Assembly (NCBI GenBank): GCA_964367065.1
Contig: CAYIWI010000002.1
Coordinates: 1-49,658 of the forward strand
From: an uncultured Gammaproteobacteria bacterium
Lineage (GTDB): Bacteria; Patescibacteriota; Microgenomatia; UBA10105; UBA927
Reading direction: 5' to 3'
Length of the DNA: 49,658 nt
Made by a program: the position numbers and the translations under genes. The notes beneath the pieces were generated by a model. The model searched no databases. It saw nothing but the letters and a program-made list of their open reading frames with translations, and had not been told where the DNA came from. This document shows positions 15,861-17,623 of the stretch, piece after piece; position 1 is the stretch's first letter, and every line of letters begins with the position of its first letter.

Positions 15861-17623
15861 TAGTCCTCGAGTGTAGAGGTATCGCCAACGGGGAGACCGA
15901 GCTCTTTGGCCTTCAAAATCCTTCGCATAATTTTGCCGGAGCGGGTCTTGGGGAGCTTATCGATAAACTCAATTTCCCGCGGATACGCGTGGCCGGCGAG
16001 GTGTTTTTTGACGTACTGTGCGAGTTCTTCCTTGAGTTTTTCTGAGGGTTTTGTGCCTGACTCGAGCACCACAAATGCTTTGATGATTTCGCCGCGCAGC
16101 GCATCCGGTTTGCCGATCACGCCCGCCTCTACGACGCTAGGATGGGCTACGAGGGCTGATTCCACCTCAAAGGGACCCACGCGCTCCCCTGATGTTTTGA
16201 TCACGTCATCCGCCCTTCCGATGAACCAAAAATACCCGTCTGTATCCGTCCAGCCGCGGTCACCGGAGATGTACCACGACGCCCTTGGCTGAAGGATGCG
16301 ATCCTTTCCAGAAGATGGAAGTATCGCATCCTTCCAAGAAGAGAAATAGCTTCTGTATTTGTGCGGCCTTTTCCAGATGGTTTTCATCATGGAAGGCCAA
16401 CCAGGTTTGAGCGCGATGTTGCCCTCTTTGTTTGGCCCGAGCTCATGACCCTTATCGTCGACGATTGCGGCAACGAGGCCGGGAATGGGTTTTCCCATGG
16501 ATCCGATTTTTATGTCCATACAGGGATAATTGGCAATGCAGATGCCGCCGGTCTCGGTCTGCCACCAGTTGTCGTGGAAGGGCTTACCGAAAACCTTGAT
16601 ACTCCAACGGATCGCTTCGGGATTGAGGGGTTCCCCGACCGAACATAAGTGCCTTAAGTGACTTAGGTCAAAAGACTTCACCAGGTCATGATCCGCGGCC
16701 ATGAGCATCCGGATCGCCGTGGGGGCGGTATACCAGACGGTAATTTTGTATTTTTCCAGAAGCTGATACCATTTTTTGGGATCAAACCTGCCTTCATAGA
16801 TAAATGAGGCCACCCCGACGGACCAGCTGCCCAGTATTTCATACGCAATGCCGGTCACCCACCCGGGATCGGCCGTGCACCAGTACGTATCATCATCTTT
16901 GAGGTCCAGTACCCATTTGGCAGTCATGTGTTCCTGGAGAATTGCCCGATGCGTATGGACTACCCCTTTTGGTTTGCCGGTCGTACCGGAAGTGTAGAGC
17001 ATGAAGGCATAGTCATCCGGGTCCATGTGAGCAATGGTCAACTCGTCACTTGCGTGCTCAAACGATTTAATAAAGTCCGGCGTATCGACGGTGATGACAT
17101 GTTGTAAGTGTTTAAGCTTTCTTCGGATTTTATCCACGCGGGGCTTGAGGCTGCTGGTGGTAATAAGTACTTTCGCATCGCTGTTATCCAGTCGGTCCAA
17201 AAGCGCCTGTTCCTGAAACGCGCTAAACAGCGTTCCGGCAATCGCGCCGATTTTGACAATCCCTAAAAACGAGAAAAAAAGTTCGGGGATTCTCGGCAGG
17301 AACAGGAAAATCCGATCACCGCGCTGGACACCGAAATCCTTGAGGATATTGCCGACCTTATTGGAGGCGACCGTAAGTTCCTCAAACGTAAATTTCTTTA
17401 CAGTACCGTCTTCGCCCTCCCAATACAGGGCAACTTTGTTTTTGCGCCACGTGTGCGTGTGGCGGTCGACCGCGTTGTACGCTGCGTTTATTTTCCCGTC
17501 AAACCAGTCCAATTCCTTTTTAGCCGCCACCCAGGAAAATGTAGCGCGGGTTACGTCGTAATCATCGAGATTCGGCAGGATGCGCCAGTCTTTTGCGGAT
17601 TTTCTGTAGATATCTGCCTTCAT
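15857..17623 (-). CDS. acsA: acetyl-CoA synthetase (AMP-forming, Bacillus AcsA-like)
   Basis: AMP-binding motifs are present (YTSGTTGKPKG; GERVGPFEVES; the C-terminal PKTRSGKIMRR). The C-terminal half aligns closely with my recollection of B. subtilis AcsA, apart from an insert of ~19 aa. Confidence 0.9.
   Translation of the reverse strand: MKADIYRKSAKDWRILPNLDDYDVTRATFSWVAAKKELDWFDGKINAAYNAVDRHTHTWRKNKVALYWEGEDGTVKKFTFEELTVASNKVGNILKDFGVQRGDRIFLFLPRIPELFFSFLGIVKIGAIAGTLFSAFQEQALLDRLDNSDAKVLITTSSLKPRVDKIRRKLKHLQHVITVDTPDFIKSFEHASDELTIAHMDPDDYAFMLYTSGTTGKPKGVVHTHRAILQEHMTAKWVLDLKDDDTYWCTADPGWVTGIAYEILGSWSVGVASFIYEGRFDPKKWYQLLEKYKITVWYTAPTAIRMLMAADHDLVKSFDLSHLRHLCSVGEPLNPEAIRWSIKVFGKPFHDNWWQTETGGICIANYPCMDIKIGSMGKPIPGLVAAIVDDKGHELGPNKEGNIALKPGWPSMMKTIWKRPHKYRSYFSSWKDAILPSSGKDRILQPRASWYISGDRGWTDTDGYFWFIGRADDVIKTSGERVGPFEVESALVAHPSVVEAGVIGKPDALRGEIIKAFVVLESGTKPSEKLKEELAQYVKKHLAGHAYPREIEFIDKLPKTRSGKIMRRILKAKELGLPVGDTSTLEDY
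16291..16334 (-). repeat. 44-nt quasi-palindrome inside acs (12-bp perfect outer arms GAAGGATGCGAT/ATCGCATCCTTC plus an inner 5-bp stem)
   Basis: Read directly from the sequence. It encodes WKDAILPSSGKDRILQ, a segment absent from AcsA homologs as I recall them. Positions 16315..16335 are identical to pyrF 39828..39848. Confidence 0.85.

Follow-up and report, generated by a model that had tools for sequence, protein, structure and literature searches.

A doublet of short hairpin units inserted in frame in acs of a Gottesmanbacteria genome, and the RAYT-like transposase gene associated with the unit

Repetitive extragenic palindromic sequences (REPs) and the REPINs built from them are by definition extragenic and have been described mostly in Proteobacteria, and selfish palindromes carried in frame inside genes are a textbook curiosity of Rickettsia. 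These Rickettsia palindromic elements (RPEs) measure approximately 100–150 bp, are restricted to Rickettsia and come without an identified cognate transposase; they were reportedly described by Ogata et al. in 2000 as 'Selfish DNA in protein-coding genes of Rickettsia'. A further route to a palindrome is the quasipalindrome template switch (the Ripley model), in which a local template creates or perfects a palindrome in replication. The literature on REPs, REPINs and REP-associated tyrosine transposases (RAYTs) includes Nunvar 2010, Bertels & Rainey 2011, Ton-Hoang 2012 and Messing 2012. A REPIN is an inverted REP doublet with a spacer that forms one hairpin (PMC3116915), and the hallmarks of REP/REPIN–RAYT systems are a single-copy transposase, a cognate hairpin repeat flanking it and inverted, hairpin-forming doublets (PMC3116915, PMC5581495). 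A GTAG or CGTC tag beside the REP palindrome is described in PMC3733652. The present analysis concerns a palindromic insert in acs, the acetate–CoA ligase gene, on a stretch of 49,658 nt from one genome of an ultra-small bacterium of the candidate phyla radiation (CPR) (the window, the ~50 kb to which the copy counts below refer). This insert is probably a REPIN-like doublet whose units belong to a hairpin family associated with a RAYT, and it lies in frame in a recurrent insertion hot spot; judged by analogy, its mechanism would be most like that of REPIN–RAYT systems and its outcome most like that of the Rickettsia elements.

The Acs protein of the window matched the B. subtilis-type AcsA 9g79 in the PDB with E = 2.8e-212, and its orthologs are annotated as acetate–CoA ligase in Candidatus Gottesmanbacteria, the group from which the closest PyrF homologs likewise come (CPR/Patescibacteria) and to which the organism was assigned on these names. 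An earlier sequence-only reading had described a 44-nt palindrome in the gene. It is present at 16291–16334, where GAAGGATGCGAT / cctttccagaagatggaagt / ATCGCATCCTTC can be read directly on the plus strand, and a repeat search of the window returned an inverted repeat with 16-nt arms, 94% complementarity and a 12-nt loop. The hairpin proved longer than described, however, with outer CTTGG/CCAAG arms that lengthen it to 16284–16338. In the sense of the gene, the site reads ...YRSYF-SSWKDAILPSSGKDRILQPRAS-WYISGD. The same reading had placed an in-frame insert of ~19 aa before WYISGD, and an alignment of 120 close Acs orthologs bore this out: the loop has 3–4 residues in ~90% of them and in AcsA 9g79, giving an in-frame excess of 19 aa or 57 nt in the window. 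The insert is also lineage-specific, as had been supposed. The gene and the parts of the insert are as follows.

15857–17623, minus strand: acs (acetate–CoA ligase), host gene of the insert, 588 aa; from the list of open reading frames (ORFs) and PDB and ortholog matches.
16277–16342, minus strand: 22-codon loop SSWKDAILPSSGKDRILQPRAS between ..SYF and WYISGD; 3 codons in orthologs, 57 nt extra here.
16284–16338, minus strand: full hairpin, made of the outer CTTGG/CCAAG arms, two units and a central spacer; from DNA folding and the inverted repeat.
16317–16335, minus strand: unit 1, GGAAGGATGCGATACTTCC (gene sense; variant with a G.A mismatch), encoding (W)KDAILP and lying inside an exact 21-mer shared with pyrF; from reading of the sequence.
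16310–16316, minus strand: spacer ATCTTCT (gene sense), 7 nt, between the inverted units; from direct reading of the sequence.
16291–16309, minus strand: unit 2, GGAAAGGATCGCATCCTTC (gene sense), inverted copy, G-C variant with one extra A, encoding GKDRILQ; from reading of the sequence.

Folded as single-stranded DNA, the hairpin at 16284–16338 reached -19.2 kcal/mol (z = -6.7), a stability equalled by 0 of 200 shuffles. An assembly artefact as the source of the insert was ruled out by strain P0361 (NCBI MEK7129750.1), slightly divergent and independently deposited, in which the insert peptide is identical. An AlphaFold model of Acs, a check that the sequence-only reading had proposed, placed the insert as a coil with a predicted local distance difference test (pLDDT) score < 50 just ahead of strand 451–459; the model is weak (mean pLDDT 67) and supports only a low-confidence coil before the strand bearing WYISGD. 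No convincing target-site duplication was seen at acs or uvrB, TCTTCT being shared by the spacer of the acs insert and its left border but absent from its right border. An intein, an intron or an excision footprint at the conserved motif was rejected as well, since these are short in-frame inserts with the shape of hairpins and members of dispersed repeat families.

The 21-mer ATGGAAGTATCGCATCCTTCC occurs exactly twice in the window and on the same strand, at 16315–16335 in acs and at 39828–39848 in pyrF, precisely as the sequence-only reading had stated. The expected number of such pairs was 0, and chance was rejected as the cause of the identity, as 0 of 100 shuffles yielded the 21-mer twice. 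The 21-mer holds a quasi-palindromic unit of 17–19 nt, GGAAGGAT-GCG-AT(A/C)CTTCC, the core of which, GGAAGGATGCGAT(A/C)CTTCC, is itself a small hairpin. Written as GAAGGAT-GCG-ATCCTTC, the unit has a 7-bp stem and a 3-nt loop, i.e. the short stem-loop characteristic of a REP, with compensatory variants at stem position 5 (T-A or G-C). It contains no stop codon in any of the six frames and therefore fits survival inside genes. Four units were counted in the window (two in acs and one each in uvrB and pyrF) against 0 expected, where REPs number tens to hundreds per genome; unit 1 of acs and the pyrF copy carry the A variant and the uvrB copy carries the C variant. The two copies outside acs are listed here.

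12347–12368, minus strand: single unit GAAGGATGCGATCCTTC in uvrB (core at 12349–12365), a perfect 7-bp/3-nt hairpin, in frame, adding 7 residues (DEASQTGRIASFKDW); from ortholog comparison.
39828–39848, minus strand: unit copy inside pyrF, GKDAILP, length unchanged, within a haplotype block of ~60–75 nt; from the sequence and ortholog comparison.

At the site of the uvrB unit, the loop comprises 7–8 residues in 18 of 20 orthologs compared. The family extends to L039, a different Gottesmanbacteria genome with an Acs 76% identical to that of the window. Its rsmI carries at 10763–10805 an inverted unit doublet that includes the exact 21-mer, and its uvrA carries at 15355–15377 a perfect 10-bp/3-nt palindrome of the same unit family (CTGGAAGGATcgcATCCTTCCAG), which encodes WKDRILP, adds no length compared to orthologs and is thus probably of the replacement type, as in pyrF. 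A metagenome scan with the 19-mer returned five loci, of which the informative one is a groundwater contig, L086, on which the exact 21-mer lies inside a transposase gene; the other four were dismissed as chance-like, with GC of 0.36–0.68 and unrelated contexts. Inverted doublets able to form a hairpin, the arrangement that defines a REPIN, were observed in acs (16291–16335) and in the L039 rsmI, and on L086 and a further contig, L094, they precede the transposase gene.

On L086, five units lie within ~850 nt: one 6 nt past the stop codon of the transposase gene, one 4 nt before its ATG, one ~60 nt further upstream and two inside the ORF of 246 aa. This ORF scored 30 bits against Pfam Y1_Tnp (cut-off 23), and a profile of its family had a sole match in the PDB, E. 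coli TnpA-REP (4ER8, E = 1.9e-4). The family alignment shows NHFH and RYIHxNP without variation, and homologs are present in Gottesmanbacteria and other CPR genomes. The layout of units around and inside the gene is shared by L094 and L095, each with its own variant (GAAGGATGCGATCCTTC in L094 and GAAGTATGCGAACCTTC in L095), and the unit thereby flanks the transposase gene in three related contigs. The gene stands beside thrS-infC-rpmI-rplT-pheST in L094 and L095, for which long flanks were available, and beside a threonyl-tRNA-synthetase-like ORF in L086, as would suit vertical inheritance; 'single-copy' is used for it as read on these three contigs, not as a count per genome. The three genes are located as follows, each with 2–3 in-frame internal unit copies at conserved positions.

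L086, 240–980: RAYT-like gene.
L094, 10001–10747: RAYT-like gene.
L095, 10001–10783: RAYT-like gene.

The first two internal units, inverted relative to one another and separated by ~180 nt, enclose the HUH motif, and they covary as reverse complements. Among the homologs in which both segments were recognisable (28 of 59 scanned), one pair of positions was D-S in 21, V-T in 3 and Y-Y in 2, with 2 exceptions, and a second pair was I-I in 17 and N-F in 7, with 4 exceptions; the peptide pairs involved are KDAILP/GSIASF, KYANLP/GRFAYF and KVLNLP/GRLRTF. The association of transposase and unit persists in homologs as low as ~45% identity. The concerted, lineage-specific change of the units around and in the gene points to what may be a functional enzyme–repeat pair, and the internal covarying copies hint at a possible self-recognition or autoregulation of the transposase gene. 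A second, distant Y1 family (28–35% identity) was also noted in L008 (~2900–3650), L022 (~2870–3600), L030 (~3920–4640) and L015 (~1120–1840); it has the same architecture, with a palindrome of its own, CCTACAAGGAGAGTCCTTGTAGG, four times in and around the gene and a few dispersed copies (L008 15586, 21606).

The site occupied in acs is used repeatedly. In 11 of the 120 orthologs, precisely this Acs loop carries an insert, placed after its Gly codon and ahead of TGG TAC, and the only other internal site with an indel of at least 4 residues in this set lies near residue 523. At the DNA level, the loop inserts fall into at least five unrelated classes, most of them predicted to form strong hairpins.

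Class A, ATTCCCGGAATC...GATTCCGGGAAT: L001, L002, L017.
Class B, GAGCGAGGAGCGAAGCGACGAG-type sequence: L009, L003, L032, L052.
Class C, an 84-nt GTCATCGCGAG...CTCGCAATGAC element: L004/L005, with similar copies elsewhere in related loci.
The window's own class, the unit doublet: window acs.
GC-rich class: L039.

The nearest relatives of each insert-bearing Acs are insert-free, and the members within a class are not mutual nearest relatives, a distribution that may reflect repeated gain, many losses or lateral spread via recombination. Other loops vary similarly: from a base of 7–8 residues, the UvrB loop is extended by 7 in the window, by 15 in L017 and by 13 in L037, and RsmI orthologs have loops of 40–77 residues. 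No fixed DNA target was apparent at empty acs sites past GGN TGG TA, which is imposed by the codons. The recurrence is most simply attributed to selection for a permissive loop, and a structural target preference is also possible.

At the minor Acs site near residue 523, class A units (GATTCCGGGAATC / GATTCCCGGAATC) occupy 2577–2607 in L002 and 2946–2976 in L021; the same class, present there in two genomes, fills the main hot spot in others. Several Microgenomates loci contain scattered copies of a 70–85-nt palindromic repeat with the ends GTCATTGCGAG...CTCGCRATGAC. In L004/L005 it stands in frame at the Acs hot spot, and class B inserts resemble fragments of related sequence. The copies located are given below.

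L014, 4204–4274, 8501–8580 and 17531–17611: 70–85-nt palindromic repeat.
L056, 8334–8634: 70–85-nt palindromic repeat.
L006, 8015–8094: 70–85-nt palindromic repeat.
L004, 2290–2365: 70–85-nt palindromic repeat.

The unit copy in pyrF is of a different nature. The PyrF sequence of the window aligns without gaps to solved orotidine monophosphate (OMP) decarboxylases and its length is constant in 120 orthologs, on which grounds an insertion was rejected and the earlier description of GKDAILP as native-looking was upheld. GKDAILPFLER was present in 10 of the 120 orthologs, the majority having GKEALKPFLDR at equal length, and on a neighbour-joining tree calculated with the motif masked this allele appeared at no fewer than four places. 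At the DNA level, there are two haplotypes of ~60–75 nt, each near-identical among genes that are otherwise 74–81% identical, and the ortholog in L092 has a perfect-palindrome variant of the unit. The two blocks (39790–39870 in the window, compared with L091, L092, L093, L096 and L097) surround HPYLG...CRTSNPG, vary hardly at all across orthologs with 20–25% difference elsewhere and are polyphyletic in distribution. This pattern suggests that short-tract recombination may be frequent among Gottesmanbacteria lineages. As the block is larger than the unit, such recombination between lineages is at least as likely an origin for it as overwriting by a repeat copy.

Set beside REP/REPIN–RAYT systems, the locus shares with them the shortness of its hairpin unit and the inverted doublets folding as one larger hairpin, and three related contigs add a syntenic Y1/HUH gene flanked by its own lineage-specific repeat, with TnpA-REP 4ER8 and REP_Tyr_transpos as the nearest matches. 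It differs in its CPR host and in the 2–3 in-frame, covarying copies inside the transposase gene. Searches of one literature library for RAYT/REPIN systems or in-frame palindromes in CPR returned nothing relevant. A number of observations weigh against the REPIN-like interpretation. The sole NCBIfam match of the L086 ORF, 'REP-associated tyrosine transposase' (REP_Tyr_transpos), reached 58.7 bits against a curated cut-off of 80, and the transposase is best called RAYT-like by its sequence, yet under the threshold of the curated family. REPs are extragenic by definition, whereas 4 of 4 window copies lie in frame within coding sequences (acs, uvrB and pyrF) and the L039 copies lie inside rsmI and uvrA. 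With 17–21 nt for the unit and 44–57 nt for the doublet, the elements are shorter than classical REPs and REPINs, the doublets of P. fluorescens measuring 71–110 nt. A conserved GTAG/CGTC tag is missing, as only the unit at L086 1041 is preceded by GTAG and the others have TA, TG, CA or GG before GAAG. No RAYT-like gene was detected by tblastn in the 50-kb window, and no dispersed unit copies were present in the 10–18 kb around the transposase genes of L094 and L095. Neither the window nor 1.5 Mb of related loci repeats the arms of two further hairpins in the window's rsmI and one in its rarA, and these hairpins yielded no family. Finally, the pyrF copy and probably the uvrA copy of L039 sit in native-length sequence, which simple insertion fails to explain.

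The remaining systems resemble the locus in part. Like RPEs, the acs insert is an in-frame palindromic repeat in a conserved gene of a small, gene-dense genome, presumably tolerated as an extra surface peptide; it differs in its size of 57 nt, in its Gottesmanbacteria host and in a sequence unrelated to RPEs. The enzyme belongs to the same superfamily as those of IS200/IS605 (Pfam Y1_Tnp), and it too presumably acts by recognising subterminal hairpins in single-stranded DNA, but its gene is single-copy and syntenic rather than a multicopy insertion sequence (IS), the repeat is a bare hairpin without IS ends, and no fixed target tetranucleotide was found at acs sites. Miniature inverted-repeat transposable elements differ through the lack of a recognisable target-site duplication at acs and uvrB and an associated enzyme of the HUH rather than the DDE type. 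A quasipalindrome template switch could have made the second acs arm from the first; neither arm, however, matches the flanking acs sequence in empty orthologous sites, and the arms recur unchanged in other genes and genomes.

The acs insert consists of two inverted REP-like units of 17–19 nt (GGAAGGAT-GCG-AT[A/C]CTTCC) with a 7-nt spacer, forming one 55-nt hairpin, and under the REPIN-like interpretation the unit would be the cognate repeat of the syntenic Y1/HUH, RAYT-like transposase in related Gottesmanbacteria. On the model of IS200/IS605 and RAYT enzymes, the transposase may recognise the hairpin in single-stranded DNA, cut it and rejoin it, thereby spreading singlets and doublets, and this enzyme would account for the mobilisation. 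In a genome almost without intergenic space, insertions would fall in genes, and the survivors would be those with a length that is a multiple of three, free of stop codons and situated in permissive surface loops. The acs insert is presumably translated, with selection acting as the filter. Such a filter would therefore lead to the Acs, UvrB and RsmI loops being hit repeatedly by different hairpin families.

The sequence-only reading had drawn a different conclusion from the 21-nt identity, namely the copying of a short pyrF segment into acs. In its full form, this would be a one-off ectopic, templated copy of ~21–38 nt of pyrF made during repair or replication, followed by fold-back inversion and duplication, with no mobile element. 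The identity of 21/21 nt in one genome, the common frame (KDAILP), the A variant in both genes as opposed to the C variant in uvrB and the native-length coding sequence around the pyrF copy all agree with such an event. It is nevertheless quite improbable, since the exact 21-mer is also found in the rsmI of L039 and the transposase gene of L086, i.e. in other genomes, the core is linked to a RAYT-like gene in three contigs from as many genomes, and a variant of the unit stands in uvrB of the window itself. The similarity said to extend beyond the 21-mer exists but is weak (a manual reading gives ~11 matches in 17 bases and a 4-nt gap), and nothing convincing remains past the unit plus AT. Furthermore, the association of transposase and unit is far deeper than the pyrF allele: the former reaches homologs at ~45% identity and the latter is confined to a few Gottesmanbacteria, and pyrF is therefore an unlikely source of the whole family. 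Comparison of the copies indicates that acs and pyrF resemble one another through common membership of the repeat family, with nothing past the unit to tie the two genes together; as a member of this family, the pyrF copy is a possible donor to acs like any other. The data would also allow the second arm to have originated by inverted copying of the first, as proposed, but no such step is needed, an inverted doublet being the form in which these elements normally occur.

The main competitor is a transposase-independent writing of hairpins onto unit-like sites, by template switching or short-patch gene conversion, which would add sequence in acs, uvrB and rsmI or overwrite it in pyrF and uvrA, the transposase gene being a mere carrier. 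The replacement-type copies without extra length in pyrF and the uvrA of L039, the two sharply distinct and polyphyletic pyrF haplotypes, the unique in-frame palindromes elsewhere in the window and the unit-like native sequence beside inserts (AAGGATTGG following the unit in uvrB and GGATGG in some of the empty acs sites) are what such a process would leave behind. The apparent target resemblance, however, is drawn from three or four cases, ordinary recombination between lineages fits the pyrF block at least as well, given that the block exceeds the unit, and the constant placement of units around and in the gene, together with their lineage-specific concerted change, speaks for enzyme and repeat working as a pair. 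This alternative is thus unlikely. It might also be that the hairpin or its peptide is useful in acs, as an element for mRNA stability or pausing or as a loop that modulates the enzyme, the origin being secondary. The insert is indeed identical in two strains and lies just ahead of YxSGD, the A7 motif of adenylate-forming enzymes, and REPs have a known influence on the fate of mRNA. On the other hand, ~90% of orthologs are insert-free, the inserts at the Acs site share neither sequence nor length, the structural model shows this one as a low-confidence coil, and no conservation was seen past one species-level lineage, which together make a useful insert highly improbable.

If the acs insert is indeed a REPIN-like doublet, a RAYT-type system would be active in the candidate phyla radiation and would place its hairpins inside conserved enzymes. 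For the many lineage-specific insertions in loops of CPR proteins, this would provide a concrete and testable source, together with a natural map of insertion-tolerant loops, and the transposase genes with covarying internal repeats would offer a handle on cognate hairpin recognition or self-regulation. A broader proposition, which is put forward tentatively and seems rather doubtful at present, is that Microgenomates of the CPR possess RAYT–REPIN-like systems with intragenic repeats, which are written in frame into Acs, UvrB and RsmI loops, sometimes overwrite similar native sequence (pyrF, UvrA) and are kept as 2–3 covarying copies in the transposase; these systems would constitute a lineage-wide generator of loop diversity behind part of the unexplained protein insertions in CPR.

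The wider pattern of in-frame palindromes pointed out in the sequence-only reading was recovered, the genes concerned being acs, uvrB, rsmI (two) and rarA. Both hairpins in the window's rsmI look inserted relative to the RsmI of L039. These and the remaining observations on the window are listed below; the order of acs and its upstream neighbour is kept in related loci.

14897–14971, in rsmI: nested in-frame palindrome of ~75 nt, encoding SSSEESSTSREVHAESSRLRSNN.
15293–15326, in rsmI: perfect 14-bp/6-nt palindrome, in frame, encoding KRPRLVEARRGL.
28831–28853, in rarA/mgsA (AAA+ ATPase gene): perfect palindrome of 11 bp around a 1-nt centre, TTGACAGGGTC g GACCCTGTCAA, in frame.
21711–21823: overlapping inverted repeats (22-nt arms with 86% complementarity, and others) in a short intergenic region upstream of a pyruvate phosphate dikinase-like gene.
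17620–18738, directly upstream of acs: archaeal-type fructose-1,6-bisphosphatase (Pfam FBPase_3 in syntenic neighbours).

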